Part shown: positions 7,577 through 63,100 of the stretch, piece by piece
Numbering within the stretch: the stretch's first letter is position 1
Layout of the letters: every line of letters starts with the position of its first letter
DNA from: Hormiphora californensis
Lineage: Eukaryota > Animalia > Ctenophora
DNA: 64,000 nucleotides
Direction: 5' to 3'
Assembly (NCBI GenBank): GCA_020137815.1
Contig: CM035355.1
Coordinates: 2,666,001 to 2,730,000 of the forward strand
Notes under the pieces: model-generated
Database searches by the model: none
Told to the model about the DNA's origin: nothing
The model's input: only the letters and a program-made list of their open reading frames with translations
Program-made: the position numbers and the translations under genes

Positions 7577-10500
7577 GTAGAGTTGGGAGAGAGACAGAGA
7601 CAGAGAGAGAGATGGGAGATAGAGAAGGATAGGGAAAGAGAGAGGGAGAGGGAGAGAATAGAGATAGTTTTTTATTTGAGACCATGTTGCTATGAGCCAT
7701 GCAAAACACTAACTGTGCAGCAAAGGGAATTAGCAAAGGCTTTTACTAGACGATAGTTGGAGCCTGGTAATGGCCAGCATCTCCAATCTCCCTATCTTCC
7801 TCTCTATTTCTCTCCCCCTTTCTATCCTCCTTTCTCTTCCCCCTCTCCATCTTCCCCTCTCTCTCTTTTCCTCTTTACCTGTTCTACACTCTTGCCAAGA
7901 AGCTTGTTTTTAACTCTCATAACGCCTACTTCTGCCACTCGTCAGTACTCGAACCTACCCTATATGTCTGTCTCTCTCTCCCCTATGTCTCTATCGCTCT
8001 CATTCTCACTCTCACGTAGCATTGCGATCAAACGTGTAAAAAGCAGCTCTCTGTGAAATTAGAATAGGAGCACTAAAACACCGAACTTAAAGGTGAAAAG
8101 AGGGCGAGAAATTAACTGAGAGTGCAATCAGCCAGAGTTTTAAAGCGAGAAAGAGTAAGTGAGATAGAGAGTGAGAGAAAGAGAGAGGGCTATAGTGATC
8201 GCGAGATAGAGTTAAGTGAGACAGAGAACAAGGTCCAGTGCATCTGCCTTGTTCAAAGTGGCAAGACCGGCCGCCATTAATATGAGAAGTTAGGATCCAT
8301 TTGCAGTAAGTGGTCCTGTCGTTTATACGCCCAAGCTGTTAGCTGCAACTACTTGAAGTTAAAACGGGAACAGCGCTTTCTTACTTATCTCATTTTTCTA
8401 TCGTCAATCTCTCGTTATCTAGCATATAGGCTATCTCTTTCTCTCCTTCTCTCCTTCTCTCTCTCTCTCTCTCCCGTGCTCTACTCTCTCAATTACTGAT
8501 GAGAGAGAAAGAAGAAATGGAACGAGTAAGTGTGAACTATATATTCCTTTCGAAACTATAGCTCAGCTCAGTCAACGGTTCGCGGTTTCAGAGACGATCA
8601 TGATAAGTACTGAGTACATAAAACAAAAAGTACTTAAGTACTAGACTAACCATAAAGTCGGGCATTTATGTGCACGTTTAACTCACTTTTAAAGATGTTT
8701 ATCTCCCTCTCGCTAATCCTCTCTCTCTCCCTCTCTCTTTGATCTCTCTCTCTCCCCCGCATATTATAATGTCACTAAACTTTTCTCTCCCCCACATAGC
8801 TCAATAACCTATTCTCTCCCTCATTGTCCGGCACTGACTGTAACATCTCACACGCTGCTTGATTTTCAGTCAGGCCTCAGTACGTAGCCGCACGGGGTCG
8901 AAGGCCAGTCTTATATATGGGACAACTCCCCCACTAAACTATACTATTCTTTCCCCCATTAAAACAGGGACGTGAACACAAACAGTACCCATTTGGTGAA
9001 ATCAGAAGTGGACACCCACTTTAGAGTGTGCGATACAAACGAGGACGGACTCCTACAGTTCGAGGAGGTATGGTGCTCTTCAGGAACCGACCGAACCAAG
9101 TAAACAACCAATCAGAGCTCGTTATTTAGGTCACGTGACTGGTTATCAGCCAATCAGGGGCAGTATTTCCTGATTCGGTCGGTTCCTGGTGCTCTAATAT
9201 ATAATGAGCGGTGCTCATAATTAATATATGTCACAAGTCATAAAATAATTAACATTCCACAGAATTGGTAACTGAGGTGAATACATTGATCACTGCAGTA
9301 GAATGTAAGAACTCTCTCAGGGGCAGGCGTGGGAAGATGGATTTAGCAGCTAGTAGAGAATGAGCAGTGAGCACTCGACTATTGAGCGAGATAGACTTGA
9401 GAGAGATAGGTCTGTCCTCTAGACTGCACGCAATAACAGTTCAATATGTGTAATAACGAGAGAGGGAAGGAGAGAGAGAGAGTGAGAGAGAGGAATGGAG
9501 ATAGAGAAGAGAGTGAGGTTTCAGTGGTTCTTTCTCACCGTCCTCCAGTGAAGGTCAACTAAGCAGGGTGCAATATGATGGTATGCTGTGAGCCGCACCA
9601 AAGGGTATGTTACGAAGTTACCCCTCCATTGCCAGCGCGTGAAGGTCGCGAGGGGTTATATCGTAACCAAACCAAAGGGTATGTTTGCTATTGAGAAGCC
9701 CCCTATTTGATCTAAGCTGCCTCTCGATAGAGACAATCAAGGGATAGGACAATTGGATATTCTTGGGAGTTGGGACAATTGGATATATGTGTGTGTGATT
9801 GATTTGGGGGCTGCGCTATTTCATCTCAGATATTGATTGTGGGAGCAGGGAGAGGGAGAGGGATCATCTAACTGAAGATCCTGTTGCCAAACAAAACATG
9901 ATACAGTAATATACAAGACTACCATGAACCATCAAGATAAGGATTCCCAGGGCTAGAGAGATAATATCTCTGAGATAATATCTCCCATATTATAGTCTTG
10001 AAATCATATATTGTTGGGATGAATAGAACGAATAGAACAGCATTATATACCTCGATATAATCTAGAACCGCAGTATAAGAGCTGCTGCAGATATCGAATA
10101 ATTACATTACAATTCTGCGTTATTGTGTGAAACTACTCGGATCTGCATATGAAGTGGTGAATCAGAATTTCAATCAACATGATCAAACAGACATGGGGCC
10201 CCAGAGATGATTCTCTCTCGAAATAAACTATAAAGCATGAATTAAAGTATAAGCTATGTTTGATACTAAACAAATCATAACCACAGGGAGATACCATTTT
10301 AATAAGATACCACACTCATATTATGGCAGGTGAGAAGAAGCCCGACCGGTTAAGGGACCCTTTAAGGGACCCTTTTAGGGACCCTTTAAGGGACCCTAGA
10401 AAGTTAAGGGACCCTTTAAGGGACCCTAGAAAGTTAAGGGACCCTTTAAGGGACCCTAGGAAGTTAAGGGACCCTTTAATGAGGTAGAACGTATCGTGAG

Positions 10501-12319
10501 CAGTACCTTCGTATCAGTTCACATTGTAAGCGGTTCCGCTGCTAATGAGGTACACCGAATCGTGGTCAGTACCCTCGTATCAGTACACATTGTAAGCGGT
10601 TCCGTCGCTAATGAGCACTGAGCAGTGAGCAGTACCGTGTATCGGTTCACATCTCTGTCTCTCCCTCTGTCTCTGACCTCTGTCTCCCCCTCTGTGTCTG
10701 TCTCTGTCCCTCTCTATGTCTCTCCCTCTGTCTCTGTATCTGTATCTGCCTCTATCTCTGCCTCTGTCGCTGTCTTTGTCTCTGTCACTGTCTCTGTCTC
10801 TCTGTCTCTCTGTCTCTTTCTCTCTCTCTCTCTCACAGAGACTGAGACAGAGACGGGGACAGAGACAGAGGGGGACAGAGACAGAGGGAGCGACAGAGAC
10901 AGATACAGAGACAGAGATGTGAACCGATACACGGTACTGCTCACTGCTCAGTGCTCATTAGCGACGGAACCGCTTGTAATATGTACTGATACGAGGGTAC
11001 TGACCACGATTCGGTGTACCTCATTAGCAGTGGAACCGCTTACAATGTGAACTGATACGAGGGTACTGCTCACGATTCGTTCTACCTCATTAAAGGGTCC
11101 CTTAACTTCCTAGGGTCCCTTAAAGGGTCCCTTAACTTTCATGGGGTCCCTTAAAGGGTCCCTTAACTTTCTAGGGTCCCTTAAAGGGTCCCTTAAAGGG
11201 TCCCTAAAAGGGTCCCTTAAAGGGTCCCTTAACCGGTCGGGCTTCTTCTCACCTGCCCATATTATTATCAGAATTATTATAATAATTACTGTTATTGGAT
11301 GTTGGGTATTGGTATTCTTGGTCAAGTAAAGGATTTGAATTATAATGAACTAACTCGTCGTGTCGCTAATTCGATAGCCAATGGCAATGGATTTTTAGTT
11401 AGAAGAGCCCATTCGCTCTCCATCTAACGCCCCATTGCACCCCCAGATGCTGGAACAACCAGTGTTTCTGTTTGAGGGTATAGACCCGGATGCTAACGAA
11501 GGTCTGGCTGACCAACTACGGGATCTGATGGCAGAACAGAACAAAACTGATATCACCGACTTCTTTACCGAAGGTAGGTTCATTTAATTACCATTTATTA
11601 GGTTTAGAATTTGCTTCAAGGTAGGAAGAATTAGTTACCGGATTTGTTCCTCACCTCTCTAACTTCTTCAGAAGCACTCTCTGACCTGGCAGAGAAGGAG
11701 CAAGAGAAACGGAGGATTCTGGGTGAACTGGCAGATAACTACGATCTATCAGATGATGAACTTGGATTTGATAATAGTTTCGTAAGTAACACTAGATTTA
11801 TATTATTATTCCCTCCCCTAGGACCACCCCTAGTTGGTTTACCCGTGTTTCCCCTTTGCCTTGTTCGACCCTCTAAAGTTACCCCTTACTCAACAAGTCT
11901 ATGCAACAACAAAAAAGTATACGCATGTTTTGTTACAAACTCACATTACCATCAGTTCATCATGACGTGTTCATTATTTCCAGGGTCTATCAGAGAGCTC
12001 TGTTTACGACTACGACCCAGCATGGGATCCTAATAACAAGGTCTACAAACATGGCTTTATTGCACCGACCCAGACCTCCATACCTTCTGGGTACAGTGCT
12101 GCGGAGTACGCTGAGCAAATGAAGGAACGGAACGGTTTAAATACTCCAGAGGGATTTCCAGAGTACCCTACTGAAGGGGACCAGGAGCAGGAGGAATTTC
12201 CACATTTCCCAGCAGGAGATGGAGGAGATACGGAGTGGGTGGAGTCAAGTGATAATGAGACCCCTACTACTACCAAGACTGATGAGATACCCCCGATTCC
12301 GGGTCACACCGAGTTGTAA
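4035..12319 (+). CDS. CREC-family (calumenin/reticulocalbin-like) ER EF-hand protein with acidic C-terminal extension, ending HTEL
   Basis: Exons 4035-4065, 4877-4960, 5517-5683, 5822-6063, 6640-6787, 7333-7496, 8968-9067, ~11447-11573, 11671-11781, 11985-12319. Signal peptide MMVLSRCVLLTWLVLVATLIGVTQA; EF-hands DIDQNGSLS, DSNGDNSLS, DFDKSDSLN, DVDRDGKLN, DTNEDGLLQ; CREC-like RFKLAD...EEYLRFVNP; C-terminal HTEL*. Confidence 0.85.
4390..4870. other. Homopolymer-garbled, probably low-quality assembly segment (in intron 1 of the CREC gene)
   Basis: Abrupt switch to sequence made almost entirely of A/T/C/G runs, as seen in degraded read ends. Confidence 0.65.
4995..5084. mobile_element. Short MITE of a CTGTCTGGCG(G/A)CGCC-TIR family (related copies ~29085-29190, ~33470-33548)
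   Basis: cctgtctagcggcgcc ... ggcgacgccagacagg inverted ends; internal ccgatctgagc motif shared between copies. Confidence 0.55.
9081..9188. mobile_element. hAT-type MITE
   Basis: TIR CAGGAACCGACCGAA/TTCGGTCGGTTCCTG; 8-bp TSD gtgctctt/gtgctcta; second copy at 38160-38236. Confidence 0.8.
10325..11257. mobile_element. Foldback-type non-autonomous DNA transposon (MULE/Merlin-like termini)
   Basis: Near-complete 933-bp palindrome with GGCAGG termini and a perfect 8-bp TSD catattat. Arms are built from 12-bp TAAGGGACCCTT units and ~66-bp units; centre is (TCTCTG)n-like. Confidence 0.85.
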
Positions 12320-15127: not shown

Positions 15128-16402
15128 TCACTCAAACTTGCCAGTCTTTGCGGCCGTCTCCAGCATCTCTCTCCTCTTTCTCTCCTTCCTCAACTTGGCA
15201 CGTTTGTTTTGGTACCACACAGTAATCGTCCGAACACTCACCCCTAACATATTCGCTAGCTCTTGTTTCCTGCTACCTCGGGCAAAGTCACACTGTGCGA
15301 ATGCTTCCTCCAAAATCCGGAGGTTCTCTCCCCGGAACTCGGTCCTCTTCTTCTCTCGGACACACTGGCTGTTTAGGGTGGGAGGAGCAGATGGTCGGCT
15401 GTTTAGGGTGGGAGGTGGTCGGTAGGAGCTGGGGTAGGTTGGGGTGGGATGGTGAGTAGAGTATATCTGGGCTGGGTAACATTGCTGCTGATATCCAGTT
15501 GTGTATCCTGCAGTATCCGGGATAACGGGTTTGAAAGGAGGGTAACTGAACTGATCTGAAGATAACAAGTGGTGTTTTTGGTCTGGGGAGGGTTCCTGGT
15601 AGGTTGGCTGTTGTTGTTGGTCCTCAACAGAGGAGGGTAGTTGGTAGTATTCCTGGGCTGGGTTGTTGTGATCAGGAGAGGAGGATTGTATAACATGGCC
15701 ATCAATTTGGGATATCAAGCTCTGGAAGGTCTGTCCTGCTGGAGAGGACTGTTGGTAGTTGAGTGCCTGTCCTGGAGAGGATTGTACAACAGAGGGAAGT
15801 TCTGGGGCGGTAACAGAAGGAGATGGAGTTGAGTAGCTCTGTTGCTGTTCTGAAGAGACGTGTCGGTACGTCTCATGGTGATAGTTGTCCTGTGGGGGAG
15901 AAGAGTGCTGGTAAGGAGTCTCCTGATCCACTGGAGAAGAGTGCTGGTAAGGAGTCTCCTCCACTGGAGAAGAGTGCTGGTAAGGAGTCTCCTCCACTGG
16001 AGAAGAGTGCTGGTAAGGAGTCTCCTCCACTGGAGAAGAGTGCTGGTAAGGAGTCTCCTCCACTGGAGAAGAGTGCTGGTAAGGAGTCTCCTCCACTGGA
16101 GAAGAGTGCTGGTAGTTACTCTCCTCCACTGAAGAGGGGTGTAGGTAGACCTGACTGGGCATGTTATATCCAGAGGATGTTGGGGATCCCAGATTGATAA
16201 CGGGACGAGTAGTCTCAACAGGAGAGGAAACTGGAGAGGGATATGTGTTATCTGCACTGTGATATGTAGGAGGAGGAGGAGGGATGAAGGTGGGGAAGAA
16301 GGCTTCACCCTGTTGGTTGTAGGGATCAGGAGCGGTGTCATCATCAGCCATGAAGGTATCATGGTACCACTGCTGAAAGGCTGCACTCTGTTTGTAGTCC
16401 AT
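15128..16402 (-). CDS. Intronless homeobox protein with divergent C-terminal homeodomain
   Basis: 424-aa ORF; KKRTEFRGENLRILEEAF...RKQELANMLGVSVRTITVWYQNKRAKLRK (W48, Q50, N51, R53); P/S/Q/Y-rich N-terminus. Confidence 0.9.
   Translation of the reverse strand: MDYKQSAAFQQWYHDTFMADDDTAPDPYNQQGEAFFPTFIPPPPPTYHSADNTYPSPVSSPVETTRPVINLGSPTSSGYNMPSQVYLHPSSVEESNYQHSSPVEETPYQHSSPVEETPYQHSSPVEETPYQHSSPVEETPYQHSSPVEETPYQHSSPVDQETPYQHSSPPQDNYHHETYRHVSSEQQQSYSTPSPSVTAPELPSVVQSSPGQALNYQQSSPAGQTFQSLISQIDGHVIQSSSPDHNNPAQEYYQLPSSVEDQQQQPTYQEPSPDQKHHLLSSDQFSYPPFKPVIPDTAGYTTGYQQQCYPAQIYSTHHPTPTYPSSYRPPPTLNSRPSAPPTLNSQCVREKKRTEFRGENLRILEEAFAQCDFARGSRKQELANMLGVSVRTITVWYQNKRAKLRKERKRREMLETAAKTGKFE
15899..16131 (-). 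repeat. 33-bp coding minisatellite (~7 copies, YQHSSPVEETP)
   Basis: Near-identical ggagaagagtgctggtaaggagtctcctccact units. Confidence 0.95.
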
Positions 16403-17741
16403 ATTGTATTGATTTGATAGACGGATATCAGTTGGTTTGATGGTTGGATGGATTAGTGTGCACTAAGACGATGTTAACCAACTAACCCATGGCACTATTT
16501 ATACTACCACCTTCCCCAGCGCCATCCGATGGTGTCCCACCGTCATGACGCGGTTACAGTGACGATGGCCGTGACGATTGTGGTGACGATAGGGGGACTT
16601 GAGTATATAAATACTGTCTGGGTTCCACTAACATCACATGTCTCACGTCTCCCTCTCTCACTAACATAACATGTCTCACGTCTCGGTGTGTGGGGGTGGT
16701 GGTGGATAGATGAATCGATGTAATGTGATCTATAGCACTGTAGGTACACATTTGGGTGTGTGACGTGATACGAGAGGAGATGGGACTAGTGAAACGAGAG
16801 ATGGTGCGGTTCTCAGCTATCCGTGGTGGTACAGGGGGTGGATCTAGAGAGGGGAAATAAGAGAATGAACTTTAGTAAACACACCTTCCTAACCAGTATA
16901 GACGATATAAACACACCTTTTCCTAGCTTTCTAACCAGAAATATGAGTCTTGGACATTGGAAATCTAAATCAGATGACCCATGGGTGGTGCACCACTCAC
17001 TGGGCCGCGAGAAAAATGCTAAACTTTCACACATTATTTTACGGGAATACGAGATCAACGGGGTCCGTAAGAGACACATAGGTCATAACGTGACACTTGC
17101 CTTGTTAGACCCTGAACCCTCTCTCCCCGAACTAAACAACCCGGCGTCACAGCTGTGGCACACTCCTCCATGTTAGTGTTTGTAGGGCGCGCGGTGTGGA
17201 AAGTAGACCTGTACGCGCGGACCCGCTTCTTCAACCTCTCTGGAGTCTCGCACATGCAGCTTTCTTCCGGGTGAAACTTCAGGTCAAAGCAGCTTTCACT
17301 GAAAGCTGTGGCAAAGGGGACGGCTTGCCTTGATCGACCCTTTTCACTTCGCCCCATTGCAGGAATTCACAATCTGTGGCAAGAAGGGTCAGGGGGGTTG
17401 GTAGTTTCGGGGAATTTTCAATAAAAACAGCATCGTTTCATGCTCTGAAAAGTTATCAAAAGCACTCACAGATTCATCATCTTCACATCATTAACAGATA
17501 ATTACACATGCATTTGCAAAGAATAAATATTTACTTTAACAGAGAAAACAGAGAGAGAAGATATTCAAAAGTTGACACAAAATCCCATCTTTAAACAGCA
17601 GCTTGTCTTTCTCGTAAGATTCTTATTAAAAAACAAAACCCCAGTTGTCATCAATTTGATCTACCAAACCCTCACAACATACAATGTCTCCTTTACCACA
17701 ATTCAGTTTTCAGAACGTGCTCATCACCACTACATAGTCAA

Positions 17742-19673: not shown

Positions 19674-22600
19674 ATTGATTGATTGAAATAAATAGGTACG
19701 TGGAACACAAAGTATGGATGCACACACAGAAAGCACAGCGTAAAAACACAGTGAAAACATGTAAAATAGCAGTTCTAGCACACACTAATCAGTCCAACTG
19801 TCCCTTGCGAGACACTGTCAATGTCATAGTTCTTTGAAAACATCAGGTTGGTGGTTCGTAACCATGCCACAAGCTTGGGGGACAGGTGATGACTGGTTGT
19901 AGAGGAGTGCACATGGGGATGTTGCTCCGTGATAGGAAGACTTTGTGCCATATAGCGCATATGGGAAAGAAGATAGGTTAAGGGGAGAATTTAAGGAGGG
20001 AAGAGGCGAGGGAGAGGGGGAACAACTGCTCAATATAGATAATTTGGAAAAGGTGGATTATAGGAGCCAGGTTGAATTATAGCCAGGTTGGATTAAGGGT
20101 AGAGGAACAGGGGGCTGTGGGGATCAATTTCTCAGCAGAGAAGTGTTTAAACATGTCCATATAATATCAGGACCAGAGTTCTGGAGATGAGAGATCAACT
20201 TAAGGCAGCTGATTGAAAGACTGAGGCGAGAAAAAAACAGATGCAGAGTTAAAATATGTTTTGTCTTTCAAAGCTGTGTTCCAAAACCGAGGCCCAGAAA
20301 TGAAATTGTTGTCAAGGTATATGCGCCTACCAGGAGGAGCCAGAGCAAGACACTCATTTCTAGAGGAGAACTTAACAATAGAGGTTGGTCTATGAGATGT
20401 ATTGGTACTGTAGTAATAAAACATTCAGATAGTACAGAGAGTGTATAGAGCAGTACACTGTCAGAGTGCTCAGAGAAAAGTTGGTTTGGTGTGAGGCTTT
20501 GCATACTTATCAAGCTTGGTTGTATGTAGAGAATACGAACAGCATCCTTCTGGAGCTTGAATAAAGGCAGAAGCTTGTTATTGGACGACCCCCAGACACA
20601 CAATGCATATCTAATATTGGACTGTATAAGCGACTCGAAACAGAGCGCCTCATGGATTTAGGGAGACATTCCTGAGTCCGCCTCAGACTCCCTAAAGTAC
20701 AATAAGTCTTATAATAACTTGCTTGATGTGGGGTCCCAGGAAAGCTTACTATCAACTATAACGCCTAAAACTTGACCTGGTCGACACATAAGATATCATC
20801 ACCATTAAACTTGGGGAAGAAGATCTGATTAGAGTTGCTAGCAAAGTACGGAAATGAATGAAATTAGTTTTACCAACATTAAGGTGTAAATATAGAACAG
20901 ACATATTCCTGAAGGTTGGTCAAAAAAGATCAATCATACGTTGGACATCAGCAATGCTATCACCAGATATGAAGATACTTGTATCATCTGCAAAGAGAAC
21001 AAACTTGATGCCTTTCGAACACCTCCCAGAACACACGGTTTTACAAGAACAAATGATATTGGGTAAATCATTCAGGTAAAGAATAAACAGTATGGGACCT
21101 AAAATTGATCCTTGAGGGACACCGTAGATAATAGGGAGAGTAGAAGAAGAGAAATCTGATAAGCGCACGTATTGCATTCTGTTAGTAAGATAGCTGCGAA
21201 ACAGGTCCAGTGGTACACCACGAATGCCATAATGTTCTAACTTGCTCAATAGTATCTCATGATCTATCGTGTCAAACGCTTTTTGCAGATCTAGGAATAG
21301 ACCAACAGTCTGCTGACCCTTATCAATGGAAGAGACAACATGGTGTTATGCCACTATTAAGAGCTTTGGTAGTGGAGCAACCCGTCCTGAATCCAAATTG
21401 ATCCGGGGAAAGAATATCATTCTTATCCAGAAATGACACTAGCCTAACTAGAATACACTTTTCATAGATTTTAGACATTGTAGGCAAAATAGAGATGGGT
21501 CGGTAGTTCGTGATAGTATTACGGTCACCCCCTTTAAGCAAGGGAGTAACACGAGCAACCTTCAGGTCATCAGGAAAAACACCTTCAAGCATGCACGAAT
21601 TAATCAGTGCGGAGATATCACGTGACACGAATAAGCTCACTTTCTTAAGAATGATAGGGGATAGACCAGAAGATTTGTTGGAATCAAATCTTTTAATTAT
21701 ATTGAAAATTTCACTAGGGTCAGTAGGGGATAAAAACAGTGAGTTAGATACTCGGTTCCGAAGAAATTTATTAAAGGTAGATTTGTTACCTGAACCCAGG
21801 TTGGAATACTTAGCGTCGTTAAGGCGCTTGGCTATACCCACAAAATGTTCATTGAACTCACCCGCAGTATCTAACCCAGGATTATCTGGGTAGGTAGGCC
21901 CACCACCCTTACCCCTAATACCATTAATCACTCTCCAACAGGCACGTATGTTATCTTTACATTTGAAAAACTGTAAAGTATAGTAATCATCTCTCGCTTT
22001 GACAAGGAGATCACGAAGTGTAGAACGATAAGCCCTGTAATTCTCTTGATGTTCATATTCATTTACTAGAACCTCTAGATTTACCCACTTTTTATAAAGC
22101 TTATTTTTAGTATCACACGACTTAGCTAGTCCGACTGTAATCCAAGGTTTGTCAGTGCGGTTGCGGGGTGATGTGACCAGCTTAGTTTTAACGAAAGCAG
22201 CTGTGTAAAGCTCATGAAAAGTAGACATATAACAAGAGAAGTCACGGGATCTACAAGACTCACTGTATCTGTCAAGACCATTGGAAACATACGACTTATG
22301 GAAATCAGTAATATCATAATCATTACAATCAGTGTAGGTAACTGTACGGGGGTAATCTCTAACGGTTTCTTGCTGGGGGATAAGTTCTTCACTGTGAACA
22401 TGGGGAGAGAGCATGAAATAGGGGAATGATTAGACATGGAATCATTAAGAACATGAGAAATTGGTTGAGAAGTGTAATCAGGCCCAATAACATTTGTCCA
22501 GATCTGATCAATGAGCGAGAAGAGTATTATAGAGGGGCGGTATACTAATGAGGGGGCAAGGCCATGGGAGCAGAATAACTGAAAGTATTTTGAACCTTCA

Positions 22601-25345
22601 GGAATCCATACGAGCAGATCAGTAAATTTCACCGACTATTACATCACAGTTTGACCTTGGAACTTAATTAAGAACCGCTCCAGACTCTCGAAAAGGCCAT
22701 CATACCATAGTTTGTCGCCCCACCTGTTATGAAAACGATACACCACCACAATATTTCTTTTGACCGCTAGGTAAGGAGAGTTTACCACCATATGATTGAA
22801 AGTTTCAAGGTCATAGCATAACTCATTAGAGATGGTAAACGAAAGATTGTTTTTGGCATAGATGGAGAGGCCAGCACCTTTATTCTTACCAGTATTATTT
22901 GGAAGACAAAAGTGCTTATAATTGGGGAGATTATACCAACTAGTGTTGTCTCGTGAAGTGATGTTAGTTTCAGTAAATAGATAGAAATCGAATTGAGACA
23001 CACCAAATCTACCAACTCTAAATTCTTCAAAATTTGTTTTAAATCCATCTATGTTTAAAGAATAGATAGACAACTGACTAGCATCCGGGAAAGAAGGATT
23101 ATCACGGATATCACACTTATCTAGAGTATTGGACATGATTTCCACAGTTTCGGAAATATCTTCATGAGCAGAGAAAAGAAGAAAAGGGATTAAAACGAGG
23201 GAGGGGAGAAGCGCTATATGGAGACAGGGTCAAATAATAGGTAATAAGGTGAGGGGTAGATAGGGTAGGGGCCAAGTTATGAATACTACACACGATTAAG
23301 GCCGAGATTGCCGACTAGGGGAAGGGGGAAATACCAGAACGAAGTTAAGCAAATGAGATACTAGAGTGAATACCCTAGGAAGAGTCAGATTTTAACTCAG
23401 GTCTGGTAAAACACATAAAACAAAACACTAAACTAGCTAAAAAACATACCCACTAACTAGCCAACTTAATACATAGAGGGAGGGAACAGACGAGGACTAG
23501 GCGAACAGGTTAAAACAGAGAGAGAGAGATAGCCTAGTCCTAGTCTTGGGAGGAGGGGGGAGCGGGGTCTGAATCAGCCAATACGGTACCACCAGCCTGA
23601 AACTGGGATACAAAGTCATCCAGACAAAAGATCTTTCTGAACATAACCTCTCCACTGATCACACGGTCCCTCTGGAGCTGGACAACAATTCCAGAGGAGG
23701 CCGATCGGAAGTGAATGTACCGGATATTAACTGAACCAATCTGATCATTGATAGCTTTTTTAAGGCTACGGAAATGATATTTTAGAGACTGGGATATAGT
23801 AACCTCTCGACGCCGTTTGTTAGCTTTATCATAGTTACTATAATCACTGACTATCTTATCTTTTAGGTTATAATCATAGAATCGAACCGTAACAGATGGA
23901 GGTTTAGTTGCGTCAGACTTATTAGGAGCATTACGGTGACATGCTTGAAGCTGTGATGGTTCAACCTTAACACCTGCACTAGAAATGGTACTACATACCG
24001 AACGCTTTAAATCATCTGGTTTCTCATTTCTCGCATGTTTCAAACCTGACATGACGATGGTTGATCTACGACTATATTGATCAGATTTAGCACATTCTCC
24101 TCAAGTTCAGAGATTCTCTGTCTCTGCTCGTCAAGATTCTTATCCTGCTCACTGATTTTTGAACACAGTAGCGTGAATAATGCTAAAACTGGTGGTGACA
24201 CATTGGAGCTACTCTTAAGATCATCCAGCTTTGGACTGGAGATCCGAGTCACAAACAGGAGAAGCAGGAGAACCAGAAACAGATACATTCTGCATACCCT
24301 TTCTACCACGTGTGTTATTATATGGTGCTGACATTCTGAAGTTACCCAAGTTACCCCTCACAATAGTTAACTATGGATAATTACAGATGGAAAGAAAAAT
24401 ATAATAGGAGATATTTGCACAAGGGAGAGCACGGGTGCTGGGGTACAGGTGCAAGCGGAGCAACAAAAGGTGGACAGAGACAGAGACAGAGAAAGAGCTT
24501 GCAAGTCACGTTGCTTGTCACCAGCAGCTCACAAGAATCTCACATACGCGCATGTGACACGCGCACCAATTTACATCCCACGCTGCGCGAGAGGTCTGCC
24601 AGAACCATCCCGCGCGTTCCATACCTGTTTCTTACACTGGTCCTTCATGACGTTTAGCTGAGTTTGGCACTCCTCCTGATAGGACACAAGTTGTTCCCGG
24701 TGGGCTGCCTCGTCTCAGCTTGGGATAACTCCATCTAAAGAGAGAAGAATGGAGTTGAATTAATTGGGACAGCTTTAAAATACCGATTCTTTCCCGAAGC
24801 ACGACTCGAAAGTGAAAGTAATGTATAGCCATGGTTACTAAGACAAAATACCTGTATAATCTTGTCTTGTAGTATCTTTATCTCTGTCGAATCCACTTGC
24901 TCTGCTAGCTTCTATCCCGCTCTGCTACCTGGGCTTCAAGTTCTGAGATTCGCTCAAACATCATCATGAGTTGTGTGTTGGCTTCCTGGAGTGTGTATTG
25001 GTTATGTGTATAACTAGTGGGTGTATTATTATATGCATGTATACTGTAATAAAATATGCAATCGGCTCTTATCTTGTCTCACTTCTCGAATCTATTCCTT
25101 TCTTCCCCCTCCCTCTACTAAACAGGGTGACCCATAAATTATGAATAAGGGGTGCGAGCGGTAGCTCCAAAAGGTGATAGTTGCACAAAAACAAACTACG
25201 GGAACATGCTGTACTCTCTCCCCCGTCTTACTCACCTTAATCATAACTTTACTGGGTGTCCCGCTAGTAGGTTGTGACCCGGAGTTAGAAACCCGTCTCT
25301 GAGGGTCCTTACTGTTGCTGGTACATTGACCTGTTAAGACGGCGC
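17742..25345 (-). CDS. Unknown coiled-coil protein with a long E/T/A/V-rich repetitive tail (start unresolved; several apparent indels)
   Basis: Exons ~25345-25236, 24985-24852, 24734-24625, 19613-19530, 19401-17742 with phase-0 junctions. Heptad-like segments (ELKSLIDSLQTEKLSLQ...) and 8-aa EETATEPA repeats. Single-base shifts near 24905, 24720, 19157 and 18490. Confidence 0.6.
20199..24450 (-). mobile_element. Degenerate CR1/L2-group (Crack-like) LINE in an intron of the coiled-coil gene
   Basis: ORF1 24309-23540 (coiled coil plus ACHR..VTVRF RRM-like region). ORF2 pieces: APE endonuclease (SLNIDG, FTET, SNHSPI) and RT (NYRPISIL, QFGFR, GVPQGSILGP, LFADD). Multiple frameshifts. Confidence 0.9.
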
Positions 25346-51100: not shown

Positions 51101-51590
51101 GTTCTCGCGTACTCCGAATAGGGTCAGGGCCTGACCGTCAGGCCAATGCTCTGACACAAAAAAGTGCCTTCCGATGCATGACTTACATCAATGCGTTGAA
51201 TGTACTTGGCGGCCTGGACCTTTGTCATTCCCCTGAGAGAGTGCCCGTTGACTGCCATTAACTCATCCCCCGCCTGAAGGGTCGCCTCTTTCCAGGCTGG
51301 AGTGTTTTCAAACACCTGCAATAGAGAGATAGTCATAGATCTCTTAATTGCTAGGCCAATTTTGCAAGGCTACTGCACTTCAAGAGCACGCAAAATGGAT
51401 TTAGGAAGTCGGTACTAGTGGAGCAATATAGTGAACCATTTTGGGGATGATCTATACCGTTAGATAGATCCCGTACCTGTACAACATAAAGACAGGGACA
51501 GTAGGGTGCTCCTCCCCCGATTGTGAGGCCCACCATCCCATCCTTACCCCTCTCCAGGGTCACCGTGCTACCAGGCACCATAGGGTACAT
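48195..51590 (-). CDS. PICK1: PICK1 (PDZ + BAR/arfaptin domain)
   Basis: GMVGLTIGGGAPYCPCLYVVQVFENTPA, AGDEL..VNG, KKVKHK.IE.MS..TAD.LGL.RA.LCND, FEYLAYCLKIKEMDDEE, GNYEYRVVLRCR, FPIDIDL; stop TAG at 48195. Confidence 0.95.
48617..49070 (-). repeat. ~57-62-bp minisatellite (~8 copies) containing the PICK1 3' splice site and exon start
   Basis: Unit cctctag|tcgctggatgaccccctgccccctccctggtaacc(tag)taactaacct on the minus strand. Confidence 0.9.
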
Positions 51591-52035
51591 GATGGGGCAA
51601 CTGTCTTATATTAGCTAGAGAGAGGGAGAATAGTTAGATACAAGGGAGGGAGAAGGGGAGAGGCACCATCGGGTACATGACGGGGTGGCTGTATACTATA
51701 TAGGGAGGGAGGGAGAATAGTTAGAAACAAAACGCATCGTGATTGTGGTTGAGATTGTTTGGACTAGGATCTAGGGAACTGGGAACGAACTTAGTTGTTA
51801 GGCGATTACAAAATAGGAAATAGCCAAAAAATAGAGTCTTGAAAATATGTGTTCAAAGAGTTTATCACATGGTATTAAATGCAATTATTTACACGTGCAT
51901 GGTCATGCCAATACTTATACAAATTAAACATTACCCCGCATCATTTCAATAAAAGACTGCAACTGTTCAAAGTTTTATTTATATCACTCTCGAAAAAAGA
52001 GCCCGGTCGTTTAGTAGTCTCAACACCAACCCTCA

Positions 52036-53920: not shown

Positions 53921-54252
53921 GTCCCGGGTCACGTGGTGTGTCACGTGACTTCCTAATAAGGAAGTTTCAGTTTTATCACGATTCACGTGACTTCATGTTT
54001 AGCAAAGGATATCATTAACTTATTCGAGATTATTTTTTATAGGAGGGCCACAAATAAACAGGGGCACAGTAATTGGGCTAACTAGGCTAAGTGAGTTATA
54101 ATTAGCAAAAAAGTAGAGAGAGAGTTATAATTATCAAGTTGAGAAAAGTAATTGGCCACTCTCAGGCTGCTAAGTGGTCGCAGGAGTAAGGGAGGAGTGC
54201 ACTTCGTACCTACTTTTGAGATCAATTACCTCCAGGCCTCTCCAATCCGTAA

Positions 54253-54372
<120 letters not shown>

Positions 54373-54815
54373 TCTGTGTGTACAAAGATCATAGCTGAGT
54401 CTGTAGTAAGTGGTTGCATCTACTACAGCTCAATTCTCTTTCTCTCTCCTGACTTTATCCGGATAAGATAAAGACCTTTCTCTCTATCTTTATTGCTTGT
54501 TTTACAGTAACATCTTGTTTACTTATTCCAATATATATACGAAACATTGCTCTTTGCAGAGCGGTACTTCTGTAACTACTCTAGGAAGTGTTAGAACAAT
54601 AGTGACAGTCCCGCCCCTTTTGTGTAAATTCATTGACGTCGTTTGTTTCTATTTCTCACTCTCTTTTTAATAAACTATCCGGTAGTAGTTGTTCGTTCTT
54701 TCAATCTCTGTTTGTAGTTGCAAACTGTATTGTATATTCCTTGTTTTATTACCCGGGGCACGGGGAGGGAGGGTCGAACAAGGCTAATATATATTCCGAA
54801 TTTGTTCAGTTTAGT

Positions 54816-56548
54816 ATGGCAGCAGGAACTAAACCAACAGTTGACACAGAACTTGAGAACGTTCCGAAACTAAAACCTGGCGCTTCCTATGATGTATTCA
54901 CTGCATGGGTCCATGAATTAGGTCAGTTAATTGAATGAATAATATTGAGTCTGTCTGGTAAATTATAAAGTATCTCTATGTCTTTATATTTCATCTTTTA
55001 CAAACCAAATTGAATGAACTGTTTATGTAATTACCAGGCTAGTCGGGGGAATTTACCGGTTGAGTAAATAAATCATCAAACTTCTAGTTCCATGCAATTA
55101 AAAAAGTTTGGGAAAATATGCCTTTCGAGATACACGGTACAGTATATCGAGTAAATGTATCTTTGTGACTGGAGTAAAAGAGAAATCGTATAATACATAA
55201 ATATAATACTCTATCTAACAGATCCTTTTTTTTCAGAGATGTATTTCAAAGTGAACGGTATAACTGATCTAGTTAGGAGGTATTCTTTGTTCATGGTGTA
55301 TGGGGGATCTTTCCTTACTGAGATAGTAAAGGAAGCTAGAAATAGGTAACAAGCAGAACTAAATTATGTAGTATGTTCAGGAGTATACAAGCAAGCTTCT
55401 GTATTTGTTAAGTTTAGGTTTATGACCATAATATTATTTGCCTAGCTAGACTGTGTTTTGCGCACCCCATTACAAATGTAAAGGAGGGTTAGAACATAAC
55501 AAAATATTATGAGTTTTCAACAAACAGTAATTTAACTGTTAAATTCATAAAAACGCTATTAATTCGTTTACTACAGACCAGTCAATCCAGTAAAGAATTC
55601 AGGAGGGACAATTAATGATTTATACGACAAAACAAGAGACATTGTCCTGGACAACTATCGCCCTTCCACAAGGTAACAACTAAGAAGCTGGTAGTGAACA
55701 TTTCATTTCGCAAACCCTGTTTCCGAAAGTCGATTGGACTTTTATCAAAAGTATTTTTTACTGTCAAAAGTCTTTTTTTACTGAGGTCATGCAGGATGTG
55801 TGGATGAGAAAACTAAATTTATGTCCCCCCCCCCCTAGTGTAACAGTAGAGAGAATGAAGTTCAGGAGCTGTACGCCCTCCCTCACTGACACACACCAGA
55901 CATTCATTGAGAAGCTGAGGAGAAAGGCAGTGTATTGCAAGTTTAATGATGGATACAGGTAACTGTGCAGCTCAAAGTTGGAATACTTATTCTTACAGTT
56001 TCTAAACCACTGCTTCTTTTATTTTGTAAAATTTGACATATTTTTCAGCGAGGAGGATGCAATAGTGGAACAATTCATGGACAAGTGCCTGTGGGGTAAT
56101 CTTAAGACTCGGCTTGCTTTTGAGCAAAGATTGACAATCAAGAGAATTCTGGAAGTGGCCAGTGAGATAAAGAGCGAGCCACTAACTAAGAGAAGTGACT
56201 ACACATACCAGAACCCTGCAGCGGAAAAACTATTTAGTACTGTGCCCAAGGAATGGAAAAATATTAACAAGGTAGGAGGTAACAGTTATACTTGACATTC
56301 AATTGTCAAATATTTATTCTCATCCTGTAGTACAATCTTCCATTGCTTTGAACGGAAATCTGACTTGTTAATGAACAATTGTTTTTCAGATTCCGGGCAC
56401 AGGTAAGACTGTTTACAAACTTGAGAATCTCTACAGCACACGAAACAGAGAGAGTATTCCAGATCCCAAGGCGATTTGTGGGACCTGCAAAAAGATGGGA
56501 CATTTACCTCAGTATTGCTTGTGGAGAAAACCTAGCGAGAGTCAGTAG
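54816..56548 (+). CDS. Intron-containing Ty3/Gypsy Gag-derived gene (capsid-like region + CCHC zinc knuckle), 270 aa
   Basis: Six phase-compatible GT-AG exons: 54816-54921, 55237-55345, 55577-55672, 55839-55958, 56049-56271, 56390-56548 (813 nt). Gag-like motifs W..ELEMYF..NGI, ERMKFRSC...FIEKLRRKAVYCKF...IVEQF...RLAFEQRLTIKRILEVA, and CGTCKKMGHLPQYC. Confidence 0.82.
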
Positions 56549-56707: not shown

Positions 56708-56978
56708 TAAAGTCGGATTTTTTGAAACTGTCACCCCCCTGGGTGGCGCGCGAGTTTTTATTTGCGCGTCGGAAACGTGTCAGAGACTTGTTTTGGCTCT
56801 CACGCCTTTGTTTCTTGACCAATTTCGTCAAACCAAAGTTTTACGGACTCACAAAATTATGCTCTTTCCGATGATATGCGGCTTTTTGCCGAAAAGTGAG
56901 AGGAAGTGGGGGCTGTCACGCGCAAATACGACGCCGCGCGTGAAAAGGGGGGTGACAGTTTCAAAAAATCCGACTTTA
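56708..56978. mobile_element. MITE with ~32-bp TIRs
   Basis: taaagtcggattttttgaaactgtcacccccc / ggggggtgacagtttcaaaaaatccgacttta. Confidence 0.75.
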
Positions 56979-59352: not shown

Positions 59353-60113
59353 ATCTGACTAGGAGTATTGTAAGTAACATAAGGGTATTATACATTTGTT
59401 AAAATCAAACATAGTTTTCAAACTAAAATTAGAGTTTGTCAAAGAATCAATAAGTAATGAGATCAAAGTATTATGGGGTTAAAACAGAAAATATCAGGGT
59501 TATTGTCACGTATGGAGGGCCTCCATTGGAGGCACGACACTATGTTGCGACTTGCCTAGGTAGACTGTGTTTCGGCCCCCCCCCCCTTCCTTAACAAATG
59601 TAAAGGGAGGGTTAGAACATAACACATTGCGACGTGCATAGGATTGCGACGTGCATGCCTCCGTTAGTCACGTATTACGTAACACATGCATCCTCCCTCT
59701 GACGGCTGACACACGGTTTCCAGGACTTTGTGAGATATGGAATAAGACTATAGTGATACAAGGGACAAGTTACAACGAGAGGATGAAAGACTGGGTAAAT
59801 GATGAGAGACTGGGACAGAAATGTTGGAAGAAAGAAAATGAGATAGGAAGAAAGAAAATGAGATAGAAAGAACTAGTGAGAGCATGAGAGAAAGAACAGT
59901 CTAGAATGACGGACACTGATGGATAACAAATACAATGCATCAAACAGAGCTTACACGTGACATTGTGAGATGGCCTCTATGACTTGATTATCCTCTAACT
60001 GCCCAGTGTGCAGGCTAGGACGGTAGCAAGTAAATATCCGAGTTAACTCCGCCGATGTGATGATCCGAGGGGCGAGGGGCGGCCAATGGTATTAGAATTC
60101 GGACCATGGCGAT

Positions 60114-63100
60114 GGTAATCTTGTAATCTTGTAATCTTCTTCGTGTACAAACTACACAGGTGTCAGTTCCTCACAGAGCCTCCCCCTCCCTGGAAACGAT
60201 CCGTATCCAGTCCAAGATTGAATTGTTGTTTTGTTTTGGGTATCCGAGAACCGGTGGGCGATCCGGAAATCTCGTCATCCATTTCCCTAGTAGTACCTTG
60301 AACGACGGTAGGTTTTCCGCTAAGTTCACTTCCCTGGGTAGTGTGTTCCATAGTCGAGTCGCTCTACAGATAAACGAGTTGTGGTACTTCGTCGCGACTG
60401 ACTTCTGTGTGTTTGTGGGACATGTTGGGACCTCCGCTTTTTTCCCGAGACGGTTGTTGTTATAAAAGCGGATGCCGATGTTGTTGGGTGCGTTGCCGTT
60501 TGCCATCTTCCACATCATTATGATGCTGTAACGTTCTCGGCGGCGTTGAAGGGAAGTAAAATTCAGCTTTTTCAAACGCTCCCAGTAGTTTAGTTCAGCC
60601 ATTCCCTTGATCCGTTTGGTGAACTTCCGCTGGATTGCTTCAACGTCCTGGATGTCAGAGATCTTTGGCGAATCCCATAGTGGACAGCAATATTCCAGTT
60701 TACTGCGGACCAGACTTTTGTACAGGATAGTCATAGTTTTTTCCTCCCTTGTTTTGAAGGCCCTCAATACCCATGCACTCATCTTTCGGGCGTCAGATGT
60801 CATTTTTCCTATTTGATGTTCCCAGGATAAATCATCTGACAGTTGGACCCCTAAGTCACGGACACAATGTTTTGGTTCAATCTTGAGTCCCTCTGGAGTA
60901 TAGTACGTTTGGAGGTCTTGGGTGAATGGTAACTGTTTAAGTAGTTGAGTTTTGTTGAGAGAGTATTGCAAAACCTCAAACTTATCTTCGTTCAGACTCA
61001 TACTACTACTACTACTACTACTCGGAGTGCCTGGGCTTGCCTACGGCAAGCCCACAGGGACTATCGCAAAGCGATATCGCCGGCACTGGAGAAGAGTCCC
61101 CCCGCCCTCTCCCCTCGCATGGAACTACCATCTGGCAGGTTCACAATATAACGAGAGATTTGGAGTGGGGCTCTTCTCGGGGTTGTTCTAGTCCTGTGTG
61201 GTTATTTTTACCAGGAACGTTTATACATACTTTGATCTTGAACCACAGTTTCGTCTTCGTTTTCAATTAATCTTTGATACGGGATATGTGAGACCTATCT
61301 GTCTGATTAGGTTCAATTAGGTTAGAAGGCTAAACTAGCAAGGATTTGTTCTCAGTCCACAGTTTTGTTTAGTATGTATATATTGGTGGCGGGTGGGGTG
61401 GTTCGGGCTGGGTGGAGGCTAATAGGGCTAGATATTTGGTTGAAAAGGGGAGTGAGAAAAATAGGGCTAGATATTGGGTTGAATTCTTTTAATTTTATTG
61501 ACATAATACCATGTAGAACATGTGTTTAGGTACCAGATATTATCTGTATACAGCCATCTTAATTCTTGGAGCAGCAAACAGTGGCCTTCTGAATTGCTAC
61601 TCGTTCAGACTCATGTTGTTGGCCTTCGACCAAATTCCCACTTTTGTCAGGTCCTCTTGGAGTTGGTCATGTGACACTTCCCTTTCAATTCCCTTTATGA
61701 GTTTAGTGTCGTCGGCAAGAGTTTTGGTTGTTGAGTGTACAACGGCTGAGTTTAGGTCTGCAACATATATGATGAAGAGTATTGGCCCGAGTACGGTTCC
61801 TTGAGGAACTCCACTAAGCACTTTCTCCAGTGATGAGAGTTTTCCATCCACCACGACAGTTTGGTATCTGTCGGTCAGGAAGCATCTGATCCAACTGAGA
61901 ACTTTTCCGCGGATACCGTAACGTTCTAGCTTTGCCAGGAGAACGCTGATGTCGACCTTATCAAATGCCTTTGCATAGTCGACATATATAACGTCGACTT
62001 CGTTTCCCTCCCTTAGTTCTTTTAGGATTGTATCCACGTGTTCAATCAACTGGGTGAGACAGCTCCGTTGCTTCCGGAACCCATGCTGAGATTCGGGAAA
62101 TAGGTTATTCTCCTCGAAGTGTTGGACAAGGTGTTTCTTCATGACACGTTCGAATGTTTTGATGACATTTGACGTGAGGGAGACGGGGCGGTAATTCGCA
62201 GCTTTGGTTCTATCTCCTTTTTTGAAGATGGGTACTACTTGTTGTTTCTTCATAGACGGTGGGATGACTTCCTCTTCCATTGATTTGTTCCAGAGGAGCC
62301 AAAAAGGGTAGCAAAGCTGTGCTCTGCACTCATAAAGAATCCTAGCCGGGATGTCACCGTCCGGTGCCGCTCCATACGGATCAATTTCCTTTAGGGCGGA
62401 CTGGATATCCTCTGGCGTAAAGTCAAAGTTTTCAGTGACCAGATTTGGTTCCGACTTAATCCAGGTCAGGCTCTTCTCAGCGTCTACATCAGCAGGGTTG
62501 CTGAACACTCCTACATATTGGTTTTGTAGTAGCTGTGCTTTCTCAGCACTGTCGGTTGTCAGGCTTCCATCCTGTCTCCTCAGTGGTGCGATTGTTGAAG
62601 CTGTTTTAGACTTCTTTTTCGCATAAGTGTAGAAGAAACGAGGGTTGATTTTTATCGTTCCGACTGCGTTTATCTCCTCTTGGTCTAGGTTTTCAAGGAT
62701 CTTCTCCTTCCTTCTGAGAGTTAGGAGGTCCAGTTCCTCATAAAGAGTTTCCTTACTGAGTGGGTCAAGATCTCCTTCTAGTTTCTTCTTTATTTTTCTT
62801 GACTTCCGTTTAAAAGATTCAGATATCCTCTGTGTATGCCGTTTTCCTTTTCCGTGTTCGGCCTTACCAGGGAGGGTTTCTTCTGCAATTTCACGTACGA
62901 TTTGGGTTACGTAGGTCTTGAACTGCTCAAGGTCATAAACATCACCATTTTTGCAGAGCTGGAGTAGTCCATCCCAGTTTATTTCGCACAGTTGTGTTTT
63001 CATTGGGAGGTAGTCAACATTATGTATCTTCACTTTTCTGAAGGGGTCATCTTCAGTTTTAGCGTTAACAACACTGTCCAATGGGTTGTATGCCATGGTA

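Follow-up and report, generated by a model that had tools for sequence, protein, structure and literature searches.

Can the gag gene of a Ty3/gypsy retrotransposon be taken over by its host and gather spliceosomal introns within the region that encodes the capsid? The question is raised by a gene on the forward strand of a 64-kb stretch of DNA (the window, to which all coordinates refer unless another contig is named). A preliminary description of this stretch had presented the gene as an old domesticated Gag that carries introns and has kept its nucleocapsid zinc knuckle. That description is supported by splicing, homology, fold similarity and an excess of silent changes, and we consider it very probable that the gene is a domesticated Ty3/gypsy Gag.

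The gene model and its homologues

Joining the six exons (Table 1) yielded 813 nt, which encode 270 aa and a stop codon with no internal stops. The six exons, the GT-AG introns in phases 1, 2, 2, 2 and 0, and the open frame of 270 aa described earlier were thereby reproduced on translation. The exons had a GC content of 0.43 and the introns of 0.30-0.39. Exon 4 carries the motifs ERxKFR and F..KL...A.YC.F. A CX2CX4HX4C knuckle was found after the capsid region, as described; translating the window in all six frames showed no other CCHC knuckle and no second copy of the gene.

A HMMER search with the exon 4-5 region against 1.84 billion representatives returned eight proteins at E<=0.001, 46-77% identical, all of them exon-sized fragments from ENA, JGI or Logan contigs. 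A profile built from the fragments that cover exons 3-4 gave one full-length match among 3560 candidates: the Mnemiopsis leidyi hypothetical protein ACHWQZ_G014292 (KAL5254801.1, KAL5254803.1/804.1), a single locus tag on one 17-Mb contig with annotated isoforms of 254 aa (P0018) and 297 aa (P0019). The window protein is identical to P0019 at 117 of 266 positions, and all six exons align in order. In shuffle tests against the M. leidyi protein, the scores of exons 1, 2, 4, 5 and 6 were matched by none of 2000 shuffles and that of exon 3 was reached by 4 of 2000; exon scores were 43-189, compared with 19-38 for 15 intron frames. This ordered alignment of every exon backs the gene model independently of the preliminary description, the Mnemiopsis model being itself a prediction. 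The comparison of sequences confirms that the six-exon model is real and not a chance arrangement.

The two genes evidently belong to the same family, with the knuckle kept and the positions of introns 1 and 5 in common, a likeness established by sequence and not by synteny. The Mnemiopsis protein differs in a start that is 13 residues longer, a longer N-lobe loop and an annotated knuckle-less isoform, P0018, which ends inside intron 5. All four zinc ligands of the knuckle are conserved in each of the four sequences that include exon 6 (the window, P0019, the fragment P0010 and the contig L001). In a tree of seven exon-5 rows the window joined P0010, and no branching order was resolved for the other five. 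Neighbouring genes are known at one other locus, L001; they differ from those in the window, and the shared introns point to common descent. On the minus strand of this contig (L001:4-633) lies an intronless PLD6/Zucchini-like open reading frame (ORF; Pfam PLDc_2, E 2e-28), some 120 nt 5' of the acceptor of exon 5 and so probably within intron 4 of the L001 Gag homologue; the contig stops short of exon 4.

Further searches added little to this set. Among longer proteins, a word-index search that used exon 5 as the query retained none of 23 candidates, the same search with P0010 gave its cluster mate only, and no homologue was found in phage DNA, viral contigs or a first metagenome scan. The candidate contig L002 was dropped: it is virus-like and unrelated, and its match of 10 residues is due to chance. 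To judge from the matches obtained, the gene family is probably restricted to ctenophores. As M. leidyi, the one homologue with a species name, is a ctenophore, the host of the window is probably one too.

Table 1. Exons, introns and zinc knuckle of the Gag-like gene, by position in the window.
Feature	Position	Strand	Length, splice sites and phase	Remarks
Exon 1	54816..54921	+		Start codon; first helix of predicted capsid N-lobe; aligns to M. leidyi P0019 29-48
Intron 1	54922..55236	+	315 nt, GT-AG, phase 1	Inside predicted N-lobe
Exon 2	55237..55345	+		N-lobe helices; 17/36 identities with P0019
Intron 2	55346..55576	+	231 nt, GT-AG, phase 2	In variable N-lobe loop
Exon 3	55577..55672	+		Variable loop and last N-lobe helix; 8/32 identities with P0019
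Intron 3	55673..55838	+	166 nt, GT-AG, phase 2	Predicted inter-lobe linker; lineage-restricted
Exon 4	55839..55958	+		First half of predicted C-lobe; 23/40 identities with P0019; homologous piece in run X2
Intron 4	55959..56048	+	90 nt, GT-AG, phase 2	Inside predicted C-lobe; one in-frame stop
Exon 5	56049..56271	+		C-lobe second half and spacer; 40/72 identities with P0019; six other homologues
Intron 5	56272..56389	+	118 nt, GT-AG, phase 0	Spliced in RNA
Exon 6	56390..56548	+		Basic region, zinc knuckle, stop; 19/51 identities with P0019; covered by X1 contig
CX2CX4HX4C nucleocapsid-type zinc knuckle	56477..56518	+		In exon 6

Expression and selection

Two sequencing runs were inspected for transcripts, X1 (seawater RNA-seq by its library text) and X2, the RNA status of both being a guess. 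The gene is expressed: X1 contains a 220-nt contig at depth 3.8 that shows no differing letters from the window and skips intron 5 exactly. X1 also contains a contig in which the neighbouring DnaJ gene is spliced, and X2 likewise has spliced DnaJ contigs. X2 comes from a related organism, less than 90% alike at the DnaJ gene; homologues of exons 4 and 5 are represented in it by two short pieces. The expectation that the junctions would be found spliced in RNA was borne out for junction 5; junctions 1-4 had no coverage in the two runs.

Divergence within the family was mainly silent, both between the window and L001 and in the X2 pieces, in agreement with the earlier expectation of a nonsynonymous to synonymous ratio (dN/dS) below 1. 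Over 102 codons of exons 5-6 the proportion of silent differences (pS) between the window and L001 was 0.74 and that of replacement differences (pN) 0.33; because this is one pair with silent sites near saturation, the ratio is rough, and it lies well under 1. Identity by codon position in the same pair was 0.66/0.71/0.38, and the likeness of their intron 5 sequences was at shuffle level (reached by 65 of 300 shuffles). In the flanks of the X2 pieces, the residue is retained at 15 of 19 codons, 7 of which carry silent changes (counted by eye). One homologous fragment occurs in five variants; they differ at 0-2 of 58 core residues and at 1-8 of the first 47, the differences lying for the most part in intron read-through and the loop. 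These comparisons indicate that the gene is under purifying selection.

Intron positions and their ages

Sharing of introns was read from where homologous fragments start and end. For intron 1, the position is common to the Mnemiopsis gene, whose Logan fragment P0020 stops at the same residue. A phase-2 acceptor in the same loop as that of intron 2 was inferred from the read-through starts of the genomic fragments P0004, P0007 and P0008. These three fragments end at the position of intron 4, P0003/L001 begins there, and the L001 DNA confirms it. The position of intron 5 is occupied in L001 by an intron of 98 nt (L001:958-1055) of the GC-AG type, its donor being GC where the window has GT; the M. 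leidyi isoform P0018 runs into an intron there and P0010 reads through. The site of intron 3 was uninterrupted in all three genomic fragments that span it (P0004, P0007 and P0008).

Introns 1, 4 and 5, and probably intron 2, thus appear to be common to the homologues, and intron 3 does not. Since intron 3 is missing from the fragments and the retrotransposon progenitor was intronless, a later gain on the branch of the window is the simplest reading. At least three or four introns would predate the divergence of the sampled lineages, and intron 3 would be younger. The earlier claim that an old Gag had gained five introns can be refined: the five were not gained together, intron 3 being absent in three of three fragments. 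We suggest that a gypsy copy lost pol and its long terminal repeats (LTRs), became fixed and then gained introns. The element would have stopped moving before the introns were fixed, because a copy made via spliced RNA would lose them. With an intronless progenitor, the gene would document intron gain without ambiguity, some of its introns being older and shared and one being lineage-restricted.

Two other origins of the introns were considered and rejected. An introner-like burst was discarded, as the five introns are unlike each other (the lowest of 20 comparisons was reached by 4 of 100 shuffles) and have no terminal inverted repeats. All five are preceded by an exonic AG, which is also the normal splice consensus. 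The read-through in P0010 had prompted the idea that intron 5 was born from coding sequence. This found no support: in the cluster mate of P0010, whose contig is 1 nt shorter, the frame is closed at this point, and the corresponding intron of L001 contains a stop. Separately, a 64-nt dispersed repeat lies in intron 2 (55438-55501) and is 81% alike to 59552-59624, 4 kb downstream.

Probable Gag ancestry and proposed function

The fold tests were run on the Mnemiopsis homologue and not on the window protein. In the Atlas comparison of features, the homologue scored 0.93-0.95 to the Retrotrans_gag, Ty3_capsid and zf-CCHC clusters. The Atlas structure comparison gave template modelling (TM) scores of 0.40-0.58 over 166-217 residues, covering residues 22-295, with 0.5 or more in seven of ten rows; seven of the ten rows were clusters with reverse-transcriptase or protease domains, and the PNMA row reached the bar for naming. 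Foldseek with the whole model placed SCAN domains in the top three rows (E 1-3), and with the C-lobe model it placed the capsid domains of MOAP1 and MLV in rows 22 and 49 (E 7-9). When the C-lobe model was compared with 48,161 chains by VIA, PNMA2, MOAP1 or retroviral capsids made up 12 of the best 50 rows, and capsids took seven of the top nine (Z 4.3-5.0). The Pfam PNMA profile matched the N-lobe at E 0.04-0.06 (13.3-13.8 bits, the cut-off being 25). The similarity to a capsid fold expected from the preliminary description was thus recovered for the homologue by Foldseek (SCAN rows), Atlas and VIA on low-confidence models, which lend moderate strength to a two-lobed helical capsid fold. As these individually weak results agree, and the knuckle is in the expected place, an origin from a gypsy Gag is likely.

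The function that we propose is that the domesticated Gag self-assembles into capsid-like particles that bind RNA. The protein would retain both capsid lobes and one knuckle, and its particles would bind RNA as those of Arc, dArc, PEG10 and PNMA2 do. The conservation of both lobes and the knuckle fits self-assembly plus RNA binding. We give close to even weight to self-assembly, and likewise to capsid-like RNA packaging as the job of the protein. A dimer prediction for the Mnemiopsis capsid region scored 0.01 and spoke neither for nor against a dimer. The fuller scenario is one we hold to be rather doubtful: that ctenophores domesticated a gypsy Gag independently before the split of lobates and cydippids, that the intron-rich, Arc-like capsid moves RNA between cells, and that a knuckle-less isoform tunes its cargo. 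If the host is a cydippid, the gene would be older than the lobate-cydippid split, placed at 160-260 million years in the source consulted in part (PMC10232365).

A number of results count against the Gag ancestry or the proposed function. Besides the use of a homologue in the fold tests, the AlphaFold models were poor, with a mean predicted local distance difference test (pLDDT) score of 44.8 and 57.6. Pfam searches of single exons, fragments and homologues gave nothing above cut-off, Retrotrans_gag and Ty3_capsid included, and sequence searches of solved structures gave no capsid match. The Atlas shared-feature counts were 141-165 of 256, below the 170 typical of the same family. No Foldseek row reached E<=0.001 with either the whole or the C-lobe model, a wide search with the whole model returned helical hairpins and no capsids among its best 50 rows, and the VIA capsid rows (Z 3.8-5.0) were level with those of unrelated helical proteins. 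The homologue set mixes orthologues and paralogues indistinguishably, and RNA in X1 and X2 covers one of the five junctions, through a single contig. Finally, the keeping of capsid lobes need not imply assembly, as SCAN domains, described in part of the text of PMC8321522 as capsid-derived dimerisation modules, may illustrate.

Alternative explanations

The alternative that survives best, which we regard as unlikely, is a domesticated Gag that forms no particles. Its lobes would act as a dimerisation or scaffold module and its knuckle as an RNA- or DNA-binding finger, as in SCAN and some PNMA/RTL proteins. The SCAN domains at the head of the Foldseek rows suit such a protein, as do the distance of the family from all known Gags (with no Pfam match above cut-off), the knuckle-less isoform annotated in M. 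leidyi, and the head-to-head position of the gene with a SELENOS-like housekeeping gene. It fits poorly with the finding that the lobes, the inter-lobe motif and the knuckle have been kept in order despite saturated silent divergence, whereas SCAN retains the C-lobe only.

Distinctly improbable, in our view, is a restriction factor that co-assembles with, or binds the lattice of, a resident gypsy Gag and so blocks particles, as Fv1 or Ty1 p22 do. Precedents for such a factor include Fv1 (in the available text of PMC8321522) and RTL8, which by the title of PMC11684626 antagonises PEG10 particles. The full capsid surface is retained, and the PLD6/Zucchini-like gene antisense upstream of exon 5 in L001 provides a loose link to transposon control. 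This neighbour lies outside the window and may be there by chance, because ctenophores have many nested genes (2357 are counted in Hormiphora in the part of PMC8527503 consulted). Moreover, the core is conserved, and no fast turnover was seen in the few sequences compared.

We consider it very unlikely that the gene is a Gag-only mobile element still moving with its introns, as non-autonomous or DNA-mediated cargo, and not a host gene. Such mobility might be read from the homologous fragment whose five variants lie on five contigs, from another fragment with four members, one of them on five contigs, and from an element resembling a miniature inverted-repeat transposable element (MITE) at 56708-56978, which has perfect terminal inverted repeats of 33 nt and lies 160 nt 3' of the stop codon. 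However, most differences between the fragment variants lie outside the core, as expected of alleles, the M. leidyi gene is a single locus tag on its 17-Mb contig, and intron positions are common to homologues that are 44-77% identical. The gene has five GT-AG introns unlike each other, one of them shown to be spliced, where an active or non-autonomous LTR retrotransposon would be expected to have an intronless gag. The surroundings of the gene, in which the preliminary description had seen no pol or LTR, agree with this on direct-repeat, motif and ORF scans. No long direct repeats were found around the gene, so no LTR was seen; the stretch from 45 to 64 kb lacks aspartic-protease and YxDD motifs; and the plus strand has no ORF of more than 93 aa from the stop codon to 57700. 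There are no transfer RNA (tRNA) genes in the 64-kb window, the primer-binding site itself never having been searched for.

That the protein is an ordinary helical one which has a CCHC knuckle and resembles Gag by convergence is hardly credible: there was no significant sequence or Foldseek match, and knuckles are also found in host proteins, terminal uridylyltransferases among them, but the Atlas features and structure (one source) both indicate a gypsy Gag over residues 22-295, and the separate C-lobe model puts capsids first among 48,161 chains.

Neighbouring genes and other features of the window

The neighbours had been named SELENOS and DNAJB11. Downstream of the Gag gene, on the minus strand, we found DnaJ and DnaJ_C matches, which bear out the assignment to this domain family; we take the gene to be DNAJB11. 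The upstream exon gave a weak Selenoprotein_S match below cut-off (E 0.026), and its gene, which is head-to-head with the Gag gene, is called SELENOS-like here. Between these two genes, at 53930-53989, stand three CACGTG boxes, a motif present 22 times in the window where 7.4 are expected; a promoter common to both genes is possible. Just 5' of the start codon, 54800-54815 is pyrimidine-rich with two AG dinucleotides, and from its sequence may be the acceptor of an intron in the 5' untranslated region (UTR) or of a spliced leader. Spliced leaders are reported as common in ctenophores in the portion of PMC8527503 consulted.

Rfam gave no match over 52-58 kb. PDZ-domain exons, presumably PICK1-like, lie on the minus strand at 51124-51605, upstream of the SELENOS-like gene. 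Broken non-LTR retrotransposon-like ORFs, unrelated to the Gag gene, were seen on the minus strand at 21323-24100, with a weak RVT_1 match, and at 60171-61040, where we assume the same kind of element. At 10318-11265 there is a long inverted repeat (some 400 nt, 90% alike), probably left by a DNA transposon. A large exon on the minus strand (15128-16462) carries a C-terminal homeodomain and an internal array of 15-residue repeats.

Implications

If the reading of the gene as a domesticated Gag is true, it adds a gag co-option outside Bilateria, in the sister lineage to all other animals, and on the models its product would be a candidate for a capsid that packages RNA in the manner of Arc, in the animal lineage that branched off first. 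Ctenophores have been argued to have evolved neurons separately (PMC4685580, in the text available), and CRISPR editing is reported in Mnemiopsis (10.1101/527002, likewise). With a homologue in this editable species, the recurrence of capsid-based RNA transfer across animals becomes directly testable. Since the introns lie inside the capsid region, such genes would be missed by six-frame genome screens that assume none. Introns 1 and 4 interrupt the predicted capsid lobes themselves; for an intron in a co-opted gag region there is one precedent, the fungal Crtg14, in the literature consulted in part.

Comparison with known systems

In a survey of 2,011 eukaryote proteomes, 14 deep gag co-options were listed and called scarce (Wang and Han 2021, PMC8321522). 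In the sections available, the seven animal co-options are all bilaterian (beetles, flies, tetrapods or mammals), the species list includes Nematostella, Amphimedon and Trichoplax, and none of the ctenophore names searched occurs in text or supplement. As far as these sections go, the window gene is not among the 14. Our literature search, in which subscription journals were thinly covered, returned no account of a ctenophore gag-derived gene or of this family. Among the sequence matches to homologues or solved structures there was no member of PNMA, RTL, Arc, dArc, SCAN or Crtg1.

The nearest Atlas structures were Gags of Ty3/gypsy K02A2.6-like polyproteins (TM 0.51 and 0.58 over 171 and 217 residues), with which the window gene shares the order capsid, spacer and knuckle. 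It differs from them in its five spliceosomal introns, in the lack of any sequence match, and in that no protease, reverse transcriptase, integrase or LTR was found with it. Like the PNMA genes (PNMA2, MOAP1; Crtg6), which are described as a mammalian co-option in part of PMC8321522, it would be a domesticated gypsy Gag with a capsid, the knuckle being present in some PNMA members. PNMA2 and MOAP1 took ranks 1, 4 and 6 for the C-lobe model, and the Atlas PNMA row had a TM of 0.49; the Pfam score of 13 bits against a cut-off of 25 means that the window protein is not a member.

According to the text of PMC10516033 consulted, Arc, dArc (Crtg2, Crtg3) and PEG10/RTL each stem from a separate domestication of a gypsy Gag and form RNA-carrying capsids. 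An Arc1-like cluster was among the Atlas feature matches (0.94). The window family belongs to another host lineage than Arc, dArc and PEG10. As described in the available parts of PMC10516033 and PMC3257199, Arc has no nucleocapsid domain and has introns only in its 3' UTR.

As to introns, the capsid regions of annotated mammalian genes are described as intronless, and six-frame screens assume so (PMC10516033, in part). Mammalian gag-derived genes are said to have mostly UTR introns and few coding ones at most, with up to 7-8 introns in integrase-derived genes, and older domesticated genes to carry coding introns (PMC3257199, in the portion consulted). A parallel is Crtg14 of Tremellomycete fungi, in which the gag-derived region of the co-opted gene holds a putative GT-AG intron (Wang and Han 2021, PMC8321522, from the text available). 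Both genes thus have an intron within a co-opted gag region; Crtg14 derives from Bel-Pao, is fungal, is fused to PEX14 and has one intron, whereas the window gene is gypsy-like, stands alone and has five.

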